DNA from: Candidatus Krumholzibacteriaceae bacterium
GTDB lineage: Archaea > Thermoproteota > Bathyarchaeia > Bathyarchaeales > SOJC01
DNA: 44,438 nucleotides
Assembly (NCBI GenBank): GCA_035542635.1
Contig: DATKLC010000122.1
Location: 1-44,438, forward strand
Direction of reading: 5' to 3'
In this document: in pieces, positions 153 to 43,878 of the stretch
How positions within the stretch are numbered: the stretch's first letter is position 1
Layout of the letters: the number at the start of each line of letters is the position of its first letter
Made by a program: the position numbers and the translations under genes
The notes under the pieces: model-generated
Database searches by the model: none
Seen by the model: only the letters and a program-made list of their open reading frames with translations
Told to the model about the DNA's origin: nothing

Positions 153-297
153 TTTTTTCTGAATTATGCTTCTTATATCTGTATACTATAAGTGATTCTT
201 TAGATCTGGCGTTAATGTATGCAGAGACTGAAGCTTGTATCAATTGTGTTAGCAAAAACTATCTAGATAGGGAGACGCGTGTGTGCACATAGACAAT

Positions 298-370
298 GAA
301 GCCTATTTGGAGTCTATTAGGAGGGTCTGGTCTGTTGTTGTGTGTGCGTTCACAGTGCTCAGAGCCTAAA
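298..370 (+). repeat. Degenerate tandem copy (A') of the dispersed intergenic repeat
   Basis: Shares the GAAGCCTA..TATTTGG head and the CAGAGCCTAAA tail with adjacent copy A. The middle is strongly diverged and T/G-rich. Confidence 0.35.
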
Positions 371-380
371 AAGTGACAAA

Positions 381-466
381 GAAGCCTAATCATATTTGGA
401 TCCTATTTGGATCATATAGTGAACGGGGTAGGGGGGAGCGCAGAGCAGATACACACAGAGCCTAAA
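381..466 (+). repeat. Dispersed intergenic repeat, copy A (three 11-bp units)
   Basis: CATATTTGGATC|CTATTTGGATC|ATATAGTGAAC|GGGGTAGGGGGGAGCGCAGAGCAGATACACACAG. Near-identical to the copies at 3019, 27607 and 42652, in the same orientation. Confidence 0.85.
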
Positions 467-2916: not shown

Positions 2917-3018
2917 AATAAACCCCTAGTCATATCACCACTGAAGCACTATTTAAACCAATGACGAAAATAACTATTCAATTCATCGCATCAACTCTTA
3001 TTCCAGTAGAACTGCTAG

Positions 3019-3106
3019 TTCTCTGTTCATATTTGGGTCATATTTGGGTCCTAATAGTATCATATAGTGAACGGGGTCTAGAGAGGCGCAGAGCAGATAC
3101 TCACAG
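3019..3106 (+). repeat. Dispersed intergenic repeat, copy B (four 11-bp units)
   Basis: TTCTCTGTT CATATTTGGGTC|ATATTTGGGTC|CTAATAGTATC|ATATAGTGAAC|GGGGTCTAGAGAGGCGCAGAGCAGATACTCACAG. Confidence 0.85.
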
Positions 3107-5668: not shown

Positions 5669-5759
5669 ATTTCTCACACATCATTCTCTTAAGCGTCAAA
5701 ACAATATCCTTATCTAACCATTTTTCAAAAGCCTACTACTTAATGAGGTACTCCGCAAA

Positions 5760-6290
5760 TTGGCTCCAAGAAAGAAAATCTGGATTACAAGGGATTATAT
5801 GAAATGCAGCGGGTGCAGAAAATGCGAAATCGCCTGTTCACTTTATCATGAGGACAAAATCTGGCCCGAGGCGTCGCGTGTTCGTGTGTTTATGTCGGTG
5901 CCTGGTGCCGAAGTGCCACACTTGTGCGTGCAGTGTGACGATTATCCATGCGTCGAATCGTGTCCGTTTAAGGCGTTGTCAGTTAGTGAAAAGACCGGCG
6001 CGGTTCTTGTGGATGAAACCAAATGCACAGGATGTGGCATCTGCATAGACGCATGCCCAGGGAAAATTCCGCACCTGCATCCAAGCAGGAAACGCATACT
6101 CATCTGTGACCTTTGTGACGGAAAGCCCGAATGTGTCAAGATATGCCAAGAAGGAAAATGGAACGCTCTAGGCATAGTAAAGCGTAGAGGTTCAGCCGCG
6201 TCGATGAAGGCTTATGCTCGCACACCCGAAGAAATCACCCGCGAATTAGTAGTCAACTTGTACGGCGAAAAAGGAGAGGAACTGCTCTAA
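5760..6290 (+). CDS. 4Fe-4S ferredoxin-domain protein (AOR-associated)
   Basis: Four Cys clusters: CSGCRKCEIAC, CVQCDDYPCVESCP, CTGCGICIDACP, CDLCDGKPECVKIC. GAGGT lies about 10 nt upstream of the TTG start. The stop codon overlaps the aor start (TAATG). Confidence 0.8.
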   Translation: MAPRKKIWITRDYMKCSGCRKCEIACSLYHEDKIWPEASRVRVFMSVPGAEVPHLCVQCDDYPCVESCPFKALSVSEKTGAVLVDETKCTGCGICIDACPGKIPHLHPSRKRILICDLCDGKPECVKICQEGKWNALGIVKRRGSAASMKAYARTPEEITRELVVNLYGEKGEELL

Positions 6291-22868: not shown

Positions 22869-22976
22869 GCCGGGGTCTCCTAGCCAGGTAGGGAGCAAGC
22901 CTGGAGACGCTATTGCAAAAGCGCCTAATAGCTTGTGACCCTCTGGGTCGCGTGGGTTCAAATCCCACTCCCGGCG
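22869..22976 (+). tRNA. tRNA-Ser(GGA) with a 23-nt intron at the canonical position in the anticodon loop
   Basis: Hand fold: acceptor GCCGGGG/TCCCGGC; D arm TCC-TAGCCAGGTAG-GGA; anticodon stem CAAGC/GCTTG with loop CTGGAGA (GGA at 22903-22905) interrupted by about 22908-22930; long variable arm GACCC-TCT-GGGTC; T arm GTGGG-TTCAAAT-CCCAC; discriminator G. CCA is not encoded. Confidence 0.85.
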
Positions 22977-22977
22977 C
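22960..22977 (+). repeat. attL-like 18-bp direct repeat (3' end of tRNA-Ser)
   Basis: AAATCCCACTCCCGGCGC is repeated exactly at 24442-24459. Confidence 0.8.
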
Positions 22978-23033: not shown

Positions 23034-23651
23034 TCACCATCTGTTGTAATGCATTTTTTCTCTTAAGGAGATGGTCTTCTGTTTTACGAAATAGTCGGTT
23101 GGGTAGCCTAGAGGAATTACAGCCGCAATCTCGTAATCTTGAGGCATGCCTAATATTCTTTTAAGGGAAAAAGTCTCATGGGGTATGTAAGTTACGCCGT
23201 ATAGACCTTCTGCCGCCATGGCTAACAGAATATTCTCGATACAAGCCCATACAGACGCAAAGTTGTTCAATTCATAGAGTGTTCTGCATTCTTTGAGAGT
23301 TTTCTTCATTCTAAAGCATACCACTAACAATTCTGGCGAACTCATCAGCATTCTCTTCTGAACGGGCAACGCTCTGAGATACATTTCTTTTTGCAGCTCA
23401 TCTGTCATGCCTTCCGTTGCCTTTCCCAACTCTGCCTGGCCTGTAACATTCTCTGCCTTTGCACCCAACCCGACGATTTTCTTTCTCTGCTCAGCATCTC
23501 TGACGAAGATGAATTCCCATTGCCTCAGATGGTCGTGCGAAGGAGCCTTCAGCCCCGCCTCCAAAACTCTTAGTAGCTTTTCCTCTTCAACAGGCTTTAG
23601 CTGAAACTCCCTTACACTGCGCCTTTTCTTGACAACTTCGTAAAAGTCCAA
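23034..23651 (-). CDS. Nitroreductase family protein
   Basis: DFYEVVKKRRSVREFQLKPVEEEKLLRVLEAGLKAPSHDHLRQW matches the nitroreductase fold N-terminus. TTG start. Confidence 0.8.
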   Translation of the reverse strand: MDFYEVVKKRRSVREFQLKPVEEEKLLRVLEAGLKAPSHDHLRQWEFIFVRDAEQRKKIVGLGAKAENVTGQAELGKATEGMTDELQKEMYLRALPVQKRMLMSSPELLVVCFRMKKTLKECRTLYELNNFASVWACIENILLAMAAEGLYGVTYIPHETFSLKRILGMPQDYEIAAVIPLGYPTDYFVKQKTISLREKMHYNRW

Positions 23652-24170: not shown

Positions 24171-24441
24171 GTTGGGTCCGTTGATAGCGCTATGAAGTAT
24201 ATTAGTAGTCTATTGGTCAAACAGAGGTTACTGTCAGTCTATATACACTTTGTAGGGAAAGTTTAAAGTTATCTTACGCAACCATGTCACGTGCAGTACT
24301 TGACGACGGTAGAACTGGGGACTGGTCACAATCCCTTCCTCCTCTCTCACAGTCTTCAGTTCTACCTAACAATGGAAACTCACAAAACCCAATTCATCGC
24401 CTTTATTAAACCGGTCTCATGTTAAATTTAAACGTATGTCT

Positions 24442-24459
24442 AAATCCCACTCCCGGCGC
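24442..24459 (+). repeat. attR-like 18-bp direct repeat (copy of the tRNA-Ser 3' end)
   Basis: AAATCCCACTCCCGGCGC is identical to 22960-22977. Confidence 0.8.
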
Positions 24460-24501
24460 CATCTTATGCTTTGTTTTTTGGATTATGGAAAGAATGTTCT
24501 T

Positions 24502-25455
24502 ATGTTGAAGAATGAAGATAAGAAGAAGGTCATTCTGTTCTCCATTGTGGTAGTTTCGGTTCTGCTTAACCTGTACACATTCACGCAGGCCTACCCCAAC
24601 ACGTTCATAGCAACGTATCACATCAATCCATACCAGACTCTCGCCAAGGATTTTTCAGCGTATTACATAGGCGCCTGGAGACTCTTTCACGATTCATCGA
24701 ACGTTTATACTGAGGGGATAGTGAGCAACGGAGAACCCTACATTTACCCGCAGCCTCAACCGTACAAGTACTTGCCCTCGTTCCTGATGTTTATCGCTCC
24801 CACGCTTTTCTTCGGCTATCAAGACGCCCTTATTGTATTCGATGTAGCGCAGTTTCTTCTTCTGCCTGTTATGGCTTTTCTGGTCTATGAGTTGCTTAAG
24901 GACAGAAGCACTCTTGTGATAGCAATCGTGATGGTCATACTATTACTTCAGCCGTCGCCCACCCCACACTGGGGATTGTCAGTGAGCTATTTCTGGCAGT
25001 GGGGTGAGGGTCAGGACAAGGTGCTCAACACATTTCTTTTGTTGCTCTCGTTCTATTTGGGCAAGATCCGCAAGCCTATCTTGTCAGGAGCTATCTTTGC
25101 TTTGGGAGCCTTCGACCCTAGGTTTTTCTTGCTTTCACTTCCGCTGTTCGCTGTTTACAACAAGCTAGACCCTAAGAAAGCATGGTTGGCGCTGATAGCG
25201 AGCCTTGCTGTGTTTAACTCTCCATTGCTAATCGACGGAGTCGGCGCTGGCTTTTTGCAGATGGTGTTTCAGCGCGGGGTTGGGACGCCGCTCTACTATT
25301 ATGCGCTGATTCCATTCTTGACGTTGATATCGTTGATAGTTCTAAACGCGAAAGAAATCTATCTTCTGGTTAAGGCACTCATTTCTAGAGTTCGCCGCGT
25401 GTTATGGAATGAGTATCGACAAAGGCTTAAAGCTCCACTTCCGACGCTAACATAA
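24502..25455 (+). CDS. Polytopic membrane protein, possibly GT87/DUF2029-like glycosyltransferase
   Basis: About 9 TM segments. FSAYYIGAWRLFHDSSNVY...YKYLPSFLMFIAP resembles the DUF2029 family. The start is ambiguous (ATG 24502 or 24466); the track start at 24436 lies inside the att repeat. Confidence 0.5.
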   Translation: MLKNEDKKKVILFSIVVVSVLLNLYTFTQAYPNTFIATYHINPYQTLAKDFSAYYIGAWRLFHDSSNVYTEGIVSNGEPYIYPQPQPYKYLPSFLMFIAPTLFFGYQDALIVFDVAQFLLLPVMAFLVYELLKDRSTLVIAIVMVILLLQPSPTPHWGLSVSYFWQWGEGQDKVLNTFLLLLSFYLGKIRKPILSGAIFALGAFDPRFFLLSLPLFAVYNKLDPKKAWLALIASLAVFNSPLLIDGVGAGFLQMVFQRGVGTPLYYYALIPFLTLISLIVLNAKEIYLLVKALISRVRRVLWNEYRQRLKAPLPTLT

Positions 25456-27561: not shown

Positions 27562-27606
27562 CGAACGCTGAAGGAGACTGCACGTTTTAGCCCAAAAGGT
27601 GCTGGG

Positions 27607-27674
27607 CATATTTGGCTCATATTTGGATCATATATGGAACGGGGTCTAGAGGGGCGCTGAGCAGATATACACGC
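27607..27674 (+). repeat. Dispersed intergenic repeat, copy C (three 11-bp units)
   Basis: CATATTTGGCTC|ATATTTGGATC|ATATATGGAAC|GGGGTCTAGAGGGGCGCTGAGCAGATATACACGC. Lies between convergent genes. Confidence 0.85.
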
Positions 27675-32279: not shown

Positions 32280-33203
32280 TTGAAGAAAGTTAAACACATG
32301 CGGGTTCGGAAGGGCTTAAGTGCCGAAGAACTCGTTGAACAAATGCAACGGTGTGGAGTTCTCGGTGCTGGAAAAATCGGCAAAGCCACAGAACTAACGG
32401 CCAAAATGTTCGGTGACCCAGATTATACGGTTTTTCTAACGTTGGCAGGTGCGCTGGTGCCTGGCGGACTTCGCAGTGTCATTTCAGACTTAATTCGTGA
32501 AGAATATGTAAACGTGCTGGTGACGACGGGTGCAAACATGGTTCATGACATGGTGGAAGCCTTAGGATACAGTCATTACATCGGCACATTCCAAGCGGAG
32601 GATGCACGGCTGAAGGCAGAAAGAATTGGTAGAATCGGCGACATCTATGTTCAGCAGCAGGCTTTTGAGGCGTTGGAAAAATGGTTGGATAAGGCCTTAA
32701 ACGATATTTCCGAGAATGAGAGACAACGAATAGCGCCTTCGACGATTCTTAACGAAATTGGAAAGCGCATCAGGGACAAGGATTCCATTCTCGCCAATGC
32801 TGCTAGGCGAAATGTACCCATTATTTGCCCTGGTCTAGCCGACTCCATCGCGGGTTTTCAGTTGTGGATGTTTAGTCAAGACAAAAAACTTGTGATGGAC
32901 TCGCTTTTGGACGTGAAGAAGCTCGTGGAAATTGTTTACGAAGCCAAGAAAGCAGGCATAATTATTCTCGGCGGCGGATGGCCCAAACACTTCACGTTGT
33001 TCGCTAACACTTTTCGCGAAGGCGTCGACTCTGCAGTTCAGATTACTATGGACAGACCTGAGCCTGGAGGTCTGAGTGGTGCTTCTTTAGACGAGGCGAT
33101 AAGCTGGAGCAAGGTGCGGCCAAAGGGTGGAGCTGTTACTGTGGTGTGCGATGCTACGATTGCGTTTCCTTTAATCGTCGCTGCTGCTTTGAGTAAGCTT
33201 TAA
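32280..33203 (+). CDS. dys: Deoxyhypusine synthase
   Basis: The length (307 aa), VTTGANMVHD and ILGGGWPKH-type motifs, and adjacency to aIF5A. Confidence 0.85.
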   Translation: MKKVKHMRVRKGLSAEELVEQMQRCGVLGAGKIGKATELTAKMFGDPDYTVFLTLAGALVPGGLRSVISDLIREEYVNVLVTTGANMVHDMVEALGYSHYIGTFQAEDARLKAERIGRIGDIYVQQQAFEALEKWLDKALNDISENERQRIAPSTILNEIGKRIRDKDSILANAARRNVPIICPGLADSIAGFQLWMFSQDKKLVMDSLLDVKKLVEIVYEAKKAGIIILGGGWPKHFTLFANTFREGVDSAVQITMDRPEPGGLSGASLDEAISWSKVRPKGGAVTVVCDATIAFPLIVAAALSKL

Positions 33204-42404: not shown

Positions 42405-42518
42405 TGGTGCAGAGGGTGGGATTCGAACCCACGAACGCCTGCGCGACAGGCTCCTGAAGCAACCGCGTCGCTTTTTATGTGCGACTCTGCGCCTTTGACC
42501 TGGCTCGGCGACCTCTGC
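42405..42518 (-). tRNA. tRNA-Leu(CAG) with a 26-nt non-canonical intron in the anticodon stem (29/30); CCA encoded
   Basis: Hand fold of the minus strand: acceptor GCAGAGG/CCTCTGC; D arm GCC-GAGCCAGGTCAAA-GGC; variable arm CGC-GCAG-GCG; T arm GTGGG-TTCGAAT-CCCAC; A-CCA 3' end. A perfect anticodon stem CAGGC/GCCTG with loop TTCAGGA appears only after removing 42461-42486 (AGTCGCACATAAAAAGCGACGCGGTT). Confidence 0.75.
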
Positions 42519-42651
42519 TCTGGTGGTATTGGTTTATTCTCGAATACTTACTTAAATCTGTCTTGCCACTAGTTGCGTTCAACTCGTATCAGACCGTCCT
42601 GATAGATTCGAAGCAAACGAGAAAAACCCTCCAATACAAGTGAACCAGCGA

Positions 42652-42739
42652 TTCTCTGTTCATATTTGGATCATATTTGGATCCTAATAGGATCATATAG
42701 TGAACGGGGGTAGGGGGAGCGCAGCGCAGATATTCACAC
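42652..42739 (+). repeat. Dispersed intergenic repeat, copy D (four 11-bp units)
   Basis: TTCTCTGTT CATATTTGGATC|ATATTTGGATC|CTAATAGGATC|ATATAGTGAAC|GGGGGTAGGGGGAGCGCAGCGCAGATATTCACAC. Confidence 0.85.
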
Positions 42740-42793
42740 TGAAAACTACCTATACTAGAACAAGCGTGTACACGCACACAAAAAAAAAGGATA

Positions 42794-43611: not shown

Positions 43612-43878
43612 TCACTCAAAGATTCCCCTAAGCATAGGCCCAAGCATATTCTTCACCGAATTGCCAAACCGTTCCGCTTTGACCATCATAAAACAGCATA
43701 TTTCACCCTCACTTTCACAGCCAATTACCGCCAATTTGTCGTTTGGCTTCAGCTTGGCTTTCTCCCTCAAATCCTTCGGAAGAACAACCTGACCCTTCGA
43801 ATCCATGGTTACTATCGCACTGACTCTACAATTACTCTCTTTTGCCATATCAACCATCGCGCACATGATACATTTCAC
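43612..43878 (-). CDS. AbrB/MazE/SpoVT-family DNA-binding protein
   Basis: MDSKGQVVLPKDLREKAKLKPNDKLAV is the swapped-hairpin signature. Lies 20 nt upstream of the arsM-like gene on the same strand. The true start may be an internal ATG, because a TATA-like TTTAAATATT abuts 43878. Confidence 0.65.
   Translation of the reverse strand: MKCIMCAMVDMAKESNCRVSAIVTMDSKGQVVLPKDLREKAKLKPNDKLAVIGCESEGEICCFMMVKAERFGNSVKNMLGPMLRGIFE

Follow-up and report, generated by a model that had tools for sequence, protein, structure and literature searches.

A family of modular, interspersed intergenic repeats with phased 11-bp units in Bathyarchaeia

In bacteria, small interspersed repeats have been studied in depth and are known to influence transcription, the stability of mRNA, the binding of nucleoid proteins and the rearrangement of genomes; bacterial interspersed mosaic elements (BIMEs), for example, dock the host DNA-binding proteins IHF and gyrase. 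Plasmid iterons and the type II parC centromere are built of 11-bp direct repeats, which ParR binds around a promoter. To our knowledge, few families of small interspersed repeats have been described in archaea. Repeats of the pneumococcal BOX type can affect neighbouring genes or carry promoters, disrupt assemblies and mark rearrangements (PMC3049150, PMC3184786). Repetitive extragenic palindromes (REPs), with their RAYT transposases, are GC-rich, 20-40 bp long and headed by GTAG or CGTC (PMC3733652, PMC12306157), and the intergenic repeats of halovirus HF2 have been shown by reporter assay to be promoters (PMC8707807). Here we describe an intergenic repeat that occurs four times (copies A, B, C and D) in contig DATKLC010000122.1 of assembly GCA_035542635.1, a 44,438-nt stretch of archaeal DNA that we analysed at its full length and call the window.

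The repeat belongs to a family of modular, interspersed, intergenic elements of ~85-110 bp, confined to a narrow clade of the Bathyarchaeia, an abundant, uncultivated lineage of sediments and soils. We found no description of such an element in Bathyarchaeia in the literature, and the family is apparently undescribed. Its traits are unusual: phased units with a TATA-like member, no hairpin or inverted ends, a strand polarity independent of genes, and concerted evolution. We tentatively favour the reading, drawn from sequence comparison, that the element acts as double-stranded DNA, probably as a promoter-like or protein-binding cassette.

Anatomy of the element

We made a profile hidden Markov model from the four window copies and one outside copy. 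Searched against the window, it gave exactly four strong matches, all on the plus strand (E 7e-25 to 5e-24), with a runner-up at E 0.75. Repeat grouping returned one 87-nt direct-repeat family (371-457, 3019-3105, 27587-27673 and 42652-42738; 68-86% ungapped identity), and the 15-mer ATATAGTGAACGGGG, with up to three mismatches allowed, matched five times in the window against 0.61 expected, a count reached in none of 100 dinucleotide shuffles. An earlier sequence-only reading had reported four co-oriented, dispersed, non-coding intergenic copies, and its positions and readings agree with the sequence. So do its unit counts (four in B and D, three in A and C, the TATA-like unit included) and its common 5' flank TTCTCTGTT of B and D, and the 11-bp spacing it described is exact. 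Its element extents were too short, as D, B and A reach further left (Table 1), and its choice of GGATC as the core of the unit has to be revised: the GGATC position is the least conserved part, and the conserved core is CATATTTG (C-A/C-T-A-x-T-x-G). An emphasis on GATC and Dam-type methylation is therefore misplaced.

Each element has a four-part layout of a left module, one to three AT-rich 11-bp units, a TATA-like unit and a G-rich box. An alignment of 34 distinct copies keeps an exact 11-nt register, with three upstream units in 16 copies, two in 15 and one in 3; unit number also differs between orthologous sites. The upstream unit has the consensus CATATTTGGAT, and the unit beside the TATA-like unit is mostly CCTA(A/G)TAGTAT. 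Across 102 units the GGATC position reads GGATC in 29, GTATC in 22, GGAGC in 8, TAATC in 7 and GGGTC in 6, with other variants in the remainder. The TATA-like unit, CATATA(G/T)(T/G)GAA, is near-palindromic, and its positions 1-6 and 9-11 are identical in all 34 distinct copies, the TATA and GAA bases being fixed by the search pattern. Its core reads CATATAGT or CATATATG, the latter a perfect palindrome found in half of the copies.

The G-box opens with CGGGG (GAACGGGG), runs through a freely varying 9-nt spacer (for example TCTAGAGGG, TAGGGGGGA or TACGTGAGC) and then reads GCGCAGmGCAGATAcaCAC (GCGCnGnGCAGAT); its end can be written as GCGC-n-G-n-GCAGAT-ac-CAC followed by a loosely purine-rich tail. 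Between non-orthologous copies the likeness ends 10-20 nt past CAGAT. At the other end at least two types of left module are known. Type 1, found in B, D and many other copies, is an imperfect palindrome, GTGAACC-N3-GGTTCTC, followed by TGTT; this module or its reverse complement GAGAACC-N3-GGTTCAC opens copy B and copies in the related loci L102, L122, L118, L119, L120, L141, L146 and others (L-numbers denote related contigs or loci throughout). Type 2, found in A, L060 and others, is AGCCTAAAAAGTGCC-AAAAAA-GCCTAAT. The hexamer GTGAAC, or its complement GTTCAC, is thus found both at the left end and within the TATA-like unit. The element as a whole is a mosaic of modules.

Table 1. Coordinates of the four element copies and of two accompanying modules in the window
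Feature	Position	Strand	Composition	Predicted start if a rightward promoter
Copy A, type 2	361-457	+	left module AGCCTAAAAAGTGAC..GCCTAAT 361-390; two units 391-412; TATA-like unit 413-423; G-box 424-457	A442
Copy B, type 1	3005-3106	+	palindrome 3005-3027; three units 3028-3060; TATA-like unit 3061-3071; G-box 3072-3106	A3090
Copy C	27590-27673	+	left module GCCCAAAAGGTGCTGGG 27590-27606; two units 27607-27628; TATA-like unit CATATATGGAA 27629-27639; G-box 27640-27673	~27658-27659
Copy D, left module, type 1	42638-42660	+	AAGTGAACC-AGC-GATTCTC, then TGTT	
Copy D, three 11-bp AT-rich units	42661-42693	+	CATATTTGGAT, CATATTTGGAT, CCTAATAGGAT	
Copy D, TATA-like unit	42694-42704	+	CATATAGTGAA, includes a GTGAAC half-site	
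Copy D, G-box	42705-42745	+	CGGGGG-TAGGGGGA-GCGC-A-GCGCAGATATTCACAC-TGAAAA	A42723
Module X beside D	42742-42780	+	AAAACTACCTATACTAGAACAAGCGTGTACACGCACAC, then A-run 42780-42788	
Module Y upstream of A	297-353	+	degenerate element-like unit without TATA-like unit and with a different tail, GGTCTAGTCTgCTGTTGTGTGTG..GTTCAC; weak nhmmer match at 298-322	

Tests of the ends were largely negative. Across 32 copies the longest inverted word shared between left and right averaged 6.03 nt, against 5.91±0.17 after shuffling, and the internal inverted matches of the element are AT-rich pseudo-palindromes only. The longest direct word between the flanks averaged 6.34 nt against 5.89±0.18, a small excess that arises because AGCCTAA recurs after a few type 2 copies. 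With neither terminal inverted repeats (TIRs) nor a general target-site duplication (TSD), the element is not a classical MITE (miniature inverted-repeat transposable element), in line with the sequence-only reading; nor, as that reading had also stated, is it a CRISPR array, since the units abut at an 11-bp period without spacers and the copies lie 2.6-25 kb apart. The right end has no hairpin beyond a 2-3-bp GCGCnGCGC, a left-end palindrome occurs in type 1 copies only, and no common tetranucleotide target is visible in the flanks. The element therefore lacks the paired subterminal hairpins and the fixed 4-5-nt target of an IS200/IS605-type derivative.

At either end of copy A stands the same 11-nt sequence, as a perfect direct repeat (CAGAGCCTAAA at 360-370 and 456-466); the window copies B, C and D have no such bracket. 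The bracket could be a TSD or a preferred target, or it could mark where a further partial copy starts. The sequence AGCCTAA also follows the element in L114, L110 and L129.

Distribution and evolutionary behaviour

A search of Joint Genome Institute (JGI) metagenome contigs with a 22-base pattern yielded 35 contigs. A pattern with 16 specified bases, ATCATATANNGAACGGGG, run over 596 Gb of genome contigs, gave ~99 mostly chance matches, with a true copy only in L060, a Bathyarchaeia metagenome-assembled genome (MAG). We added syntenic loci of related genomes through look-ups of neighbour proteins. Together these gave 53 profile matches at E<=1e-6, at ~30 different genomic sites, and the named homologues of neighbour proteins are from Bathyarchaeia or Bathyarchaeales. 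Scans of viral contigs gave 0, 0 and 12 pattern matches, the 12 being chance (nhmmer E>=0.002 over 20-30 nt), and a viral origin was rejected. The parent contig of the window (ERZ27256600 k141_2161276, 47,189 nt) holds four copies, ~1 per 12 kb, and the 2.75 kb of it outside the window holds no further copy. Among 33 metagenome contigs, ten have an end within 150 nt of a copy, where 4.7 would be expected (p = 0.012), which we attribute to assemblies breaking at an element with many copies per genome.

Occupied sites persist across species. At the C site, by the 3' end of the MFS gene, L108, L139/L140 (87% protein identity) and L137/L138 (78%) have the element and L135 (83%) keeps a remnant of it; at the D site, which separates tRNA-Leu and methyltransferase genes, L142 (91%), L141 (86%) and L143 (86%) have it; and orthologues of copy B are present in L128, L146 (88%) and L145 (89%, decaying). 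Sites B, C and D are thus kept in relatives with 78-91% neighbour-protein identity, where the flanking intergenic DNA is unalignable and the unit/TATA part stands at consensus. We saw no empty sites at B, C and D in close relatives; the element-less loci L147 and L144 are more distant and rearranged. The earlier reading had named further copies in relatives, conservation and orientation as points to check, and all three checks came out in its favour: many copies were found, their sites are conserved, and the copies are not randomly oriented.

Evolution within a genome is concerted. In the ERZ27247960 genome, GAACCGGG occurs in three of five copies (A, B and x2) and CCTAGTAGTAT in four of five (B, D and x2, counting a close variant at A); the corresponding window states are GAACGGGG in all four copies and CCTAATAG(T/G)AT in B and D. 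Copies A and B of ERZ27247960 are 90% identical to each other and only 83% identical to their window orthologues. The left module can also differ in type among orthologous copies: at site A the window has a type 2 composite where L146 has type 1, and at site C the window has a type 2-like module where L139 and L137 have type 1. These lineage-specific states and swapped left modules require gene conversion or ectopic recombination among copies, or to co-evolution with a reader protein.

The element also lies at breaks in synteny. Among pairs of copies that share flanks, 17 share both, 11 the right only and two the left only, so that a rearrangement boundary falls exactly at the element in about half of the orthologous groups; to the left of the rps8e site, each of three relatives has a different neighbour. 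We rejected an asymmetric replacement of flanks, because the 11 and 2 pairs collapse to ~5-6 and 2 independent events, which is not significant.

Copies on the same contig lie on one strand: four of four in the window, two of two in L121 and in L141, and three of three in L146. This set includes copies antisense to both neighbours (D and L146c) and copy C between its convergent genes. It amounts to ~6 independent concordant outcomes (p ~1/64), in a sample that is small and partly syntenic. The orientation of neighbouring genes does not explain the co-orientation, and GC skew in the window mirrors gene strand only, without a replication signal.

All copies are intergenic, in divergent, tandem and convergent spaces, and follow no rule relative to their neighbours. 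The sequence-only reading had divided the window copies into those upstream of plus-strand genes and those pointing antisense into minus-strand genes. The distances behind this division are correct (CAGATAC precedes the start of rps8e by 88 nt and that of wecB by 86 nt, and follows the MFS stop by 20 nt and the methyltransferase stop by 61 nt), as are the gene identities (Pfam S8e, Epimerase_2, MFS_1 and Methyltransf_31, the last with homologues named arsenite methyltransferase); the division itself does not extend to the ~30 sites, which cover every intergenic context. A co-oriented downstream gene is present at about two-thirds of sites, its start 58-400 nt away. Such genes include rps8e, wecB and those for prefoldin beta, RpoH, HypF, a phosphoribosyltransferase, a tRNA-splicing endonuclease and GH3, as well as a 5S rRNA gene and genes for an ERCC4 nuclease, DUF2148, GNAT and DNA ligase proteins. 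At least 15 copies have a divergent upstream neighbour, which for two of them (copy D and L141b) is a tRNA gene.

Two of these contexts merit separate mention. At L141 340-470 a copy stands beside a divergent intron-containing tRNA gene, with its left palindrome ~10-15 bp from the TATA box of that gene. In L110 and L129 the next feature downstream of the element, at ~60 nt, is a 5S rRNA gene that has a TATA box of its own; the two loci have a common right flank and different left neighbours.

Candidate roles

The fixed blocks, the free 9-mer of fixed length, the units spaced by a helical turn and the recurring GTGAAC half-site argue for a protein site on double-stranded DNA. The sequence-only reading had proposed an iteron-like protein-binding module, and this we keep as the best class of explanation; its other suggestion, a small RNA (sRNA), fared worse (see below), so that its interpretation as a whole is partly supported. 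In its most probable form such a site would be an autonomous promoter-like or regulatory cassette, a version that draws on two further features: the TATA-like unit resembles a minority of the genome's own boxes (for example AAGC-ATATAAGT and TTGC-ATATTTAA), and the likeness between copies ends ~15-25 nt after the predicted start, as in a promoter module. We propose that the TATA-like box and the phased AT-rich units would be occupied by TBP/TFB, by a factor reading GTGAAC/GTTCAC, or by both. If the element fired rightward, transcription would start ~22 nt past the box at the conserved GCGC-A-G (Table 1), and its products would be non-coding RNAs, upstream or antisense, instead of the main mRNAs of the neighbours. 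Ectopic recombination or gene conversion between copies would homogenise them and make rearrangement breakpoints.

Several observations weigh against a promoter-like cassette. The bases ahead of the TATA-like box are GGATC or GTATC, unlike the genome's usual AAGC/ACGC, which resembles a B recognition element (BRE). With a matrix made from window promoters, itself weak, the plus strand of the element scores at most 3.6 bits, where real promoters score 4.7-12.5; by the same weak matrix the minus strand scores 7.5-7.8 bits at TTCACTATATGAT in three of the four copies, which leaves the direction of any promoter uncertain. The stretch from box to predicted start is G-rich and poor for DNA melting. 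Sense neighbours have a BRE/TATA of their own (AAGC-TTAWATA, ~35-45 nt before the start codon), 10-50 nt past the element. In L147, whose wecB is 77% identical, the element is absent and the wecB box AAACCTTACAA is kept; at the rps8e site of L145 only the last ~20 nt of the G-box are left and the box CAATAAGCTTATATTAGC is intact. Since neighbour promoters persist without it, the element is not their core promoter.

The genomic context also fits poorly. About a third of the copies point into the 3' end of a convergent gene (for MFS, ArsM-like methyltransferase, zinc-ribbon, prenyltransferase-like, rubrerythrin-like and helix-turn-helix membrane proteins), and copy C sits between two convergent genes. 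A regulon was rejected on the unrelated Pfam functions of 19 neighbour genes at related loci and 10 around the window copies. Part of the apparent conservation is moreover imposed, as the metagenome pattern fixed TATA, GAACGGGG and GCGCnGnGCAGA. Ten copies were found without that pattern, through neighbour proteins or nhmmer only; conservation in these reaches at least 90% over the unit/TATA part and 60-90% over the G-box.

The best-surviving alternative, which we consider unlikely, is a selfish, non-autonomous mobile element without host function, perhaps mobilised in trans by a single-strand transposase (HUH/Y1, IS200/IS605-type) or by another transposase. Single-strand transposition would explain both the absence of TIRs and TSDs, as in IS200/IS605 derivatives, and the strand bias of the co-oriented copies. 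The family is also multi-copy, strictly intergenic and placed beside unrelated genes in every orientation class, it is modular, with varying unit number and left modules swapped at orthologous sites, and contigs break at it; the subterminal imperfect palindrome at the left end of type 1 copies and the direct-repeat bracket of copy A point the same way. Against mobility, no relative with 86% or more neighbour identity lacks the element at sites B, C and D, so that no recent movement is seen. The genes called in the annotated related loci (~160 kb non-redundant) include no transposase or integrase, the element lacks a right-end hairpin and a common target sequence, and the viral scans found no copies. 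The persistence of the unit/TATA part at consensus, at ancient sites amid scrambled flanks, would require selection or gene conversion in addition. A mobile origin and a promoter or binding-site role can coexist, and the two are not fully exclusive.

The strand polarity raises a different possibility, that the copies form a polar set of cis-elements with a dedicated reader, whose orientation follows the chromosome or its replication. These could be sites like KOPS, Ter or parS, or non-canonical promoters served by a specialised TBP/TFB paralogue, in which case firing co-directional with replication would yield upstream and antisense transcripts. We regard such a set as improbable, and its narrower form, a chromosome-architecture signal in which a sequence-specific nucleoid, segregation or replication-associated protein sits on the phased array, as rather improbable. 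Functional comparators exist in KOPS, Ter and parS-type sites and in the bacterial BIMEs that bind IHF or gyrase. The single strand per contig regardless of neighbours, with its ~6 concordant outcomes, is the main attraction of a polar signal, to which helical phasing and the occupation of convergent spaces such as that of copy C, where a promoter makes no obvious sense, can be added. Co-evolution of sites and reader would explain the concerted, lineage-specific changes. The small, partly syntenic orientation sample tells against it, as do a window GC skew that follows gene strand only and the lack of any candidate binding protein beside the copies; we know of no archaeal precedent.

An sRNA gene family, or the conserved 5' part of many sRNAs, is very improbable. 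Its appeal lies in the fairly sharp 3' edge of conservation, followed by variable sequence, and in the several copies that run antisense into gene 3' ends. Yet neither strand has a conserved fold or covariation: the RNAalifold consensus, with two trivial pairs, has an energy of -1.08 kcal/mol (plus strand) or -0.03 kcal/mol (minus strand), and single-copy folds (n=8) resemble their shuffled controls (z -1.16 to +0.78). Rfam gave no match to the element at gathering or permissive thresholds, no C/D or H/ACA boxes were found, and no consistent terminator lies downstream. The predicted start, besides, would leave only ~15 nt of conserved sequence in the RNA. On the missing fold, covariation and model match we rejected a structured RNA or Rfam family, and the small-RNA suggestion of the earlier reading is not supported.

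Iterons of a replication origin or partition site (repeats bound by Rep or ParR, or Orc1/Cdc6 origin recognition boxes [ORBs] with a G-string) come to mind through what we take to be loose likenesses, of TGGAAC/GTGAAC followed by GGGGT to an ORB dyad with G-string and of the 11-bp direct repeats to plasmid iterons and the parC centromere, and are effectively refuted by distribution: the copies stand singly every 3-25 kb in a contig instead of clustering at an AT-rich unwinding element, are far too numerous, are co-oriented where ORBs flank an origin in inverted orientation, and have no orc1/cdc6, rep or par gene beside any of them. A clustered array was likewise rejected, the single, dispersed copies having housekeeping genes of unrelated function as neighbours.

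If the element is a promoter-like or factor-binding cassette, it would offer a high-copy probe for the binding of archaeal transcription factors or chromatin proteins in an uncultivated group, and would be a source of pervasive antisense and upstream transcription. Were its orientation to track replication, it could serve as a new marker of how replichores are arranged in archaeal MAGs. In practice, the profile accounts for contig breaks in the MAGs of this group and can point out hot spots of rearrangement.

Neighbouring features and described relatives

Two further modules accompany the element (Table 1). Module X consists of AAAACTACCTAkACTAGAr followed by a palindrome of the GCGTGT..ACACGC type. 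Beside D, the A-run that follows it reads as the oligo-T terminator of the minus-strand methyltransferase gene. The module recurs at 255-292 in the window and in L060, L101, L112, L121, L135 and L141-L143, and reversed in L102; it lies up- or downstream of element copies, in both orientations, and may be a separate repeat family or a terminator-like module. Module Y is also present in L060, L124, L114, L117, L106, L108 and L102. It stands directly ahead of several type 2 copies and once occurs alone, at L123 2075-2140, inverted relative to the full copy.

In keeping with its archaeal origin, the window encodes ribosomal protein S8e and SRP19. It also has two tRNA genes of 108-111 nt, at 22869-22976 (plus) and 42408-42518 (minus), which were found by Rfam and missed by ARAGORN in bacterial mode, presumably owing to introns. 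Copy D has the second, a tRNA-Leu gene in orthologous loci, as its divergent neighbour on the left. The first has its 3' end (22951-22977) repeated 1.5 kb downstream at 24433-24459 (27 nt, 85% identity), where the repeat overlaps the ATG of the open reading frame (ORF) at 24436-25455; the interval contains a nitroreductase gene (23034-23651, minus) and a 93-aa ORF. This duplication looks like the relic of an attachment site, and no integrase was found there by Pfam.

A small gene of the MazE/AbrB fold lies directly upstream of the ArsM-like methyltransferase gene in the window (43612-43878, minus) and in L141 (9747-9983), L143 (7001-7237) and L144 (5578-5844), which suggests a conserved two-gene unit. 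An inverted pair of 27 nt with 89% complementarity (CCTTATCTAACCATTTTTCAAAAGCCT and its complement) lies at 5708-5734 and 32668-32694, 27 kb apart, with one arm just upstream of a ferredoxin-like gene at 5760.

Among described families, the pneumococcal BOX (boxA-boxB(n)-boxC), RUP, SPRITE, ERIC/IRU and Correia repeats resemble the element in being short, non-coding, intergenic, present in many copies and placed beside unrelated genes. The BOX type is closest in plan, with constant end modules and a varying number of internal units, and the element matches it with a constant right module, one to three internal units and many intergenic copies, a resemblance only and not homology. BOX, RUP and Correia have inverted ends or stable stem-loops, whereas the element has neither (its end modules form no stable stem-loop, z -1.16 to +0.78) and shows no sequence similarity to them; its internal unit is only 11 bp and TATA-like, and it is archaeal and co-oriented by strand. 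REPs and BIMEs are likewise mosaics of short extragenic modules without classical TIRs or TSDs. The body of the element, in contrast, consists of AT-rich direct 11-mers and a non-palindromic G-box, and only the type 1 left module is palindromic (17 nt, imperfect), on which grounds we rejected a REP/BIME unit; no RAYT-like gene was seen in the fetched loci.

MITEs and the palindrome-associated elements derived from IS200/IS605 (PMC10969869, PMC11602168) are similar in size, intergenic position and multiplicity, and the IS200/IS605 type also in its lack of TIRs and TSDs and in a strand bias that the co-oriented copies may share. The element differs from one or the other in having no TIR, TSD or paired subterminal hairpins, and neither an autonomous partner in the annotated related loci nor an empty site in a close relative was found. 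The HF2 repeats are, like the element, archaeal, intergenic and tens of bp long, with AT-rich TATA-like motifs. They are viral, belong to a single genome and lie upstream of the genes that they drive, whereas the element is chromosomal, absent from the viral contigs searched and often not upstream of a co-oriented gene, and its neighbours have promoters of their own. Iterons and parC share with it direct repeats of about a helical turn that adjoin a promoter-like box, an arrangement that suggests cooperative binding along one face of the DNA; they are single-locus arrays of at least 10 repeats beside rep or par genes, where the element has one to three units and a TATA-like unit and is dispersed. 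By analogy, then, the closest described systems appear to be BOX and the mosaic REP/BIME repeats in architecture, the HF2 repeats in possible function, and the 11-bp iteron and parC arrays in geometry.

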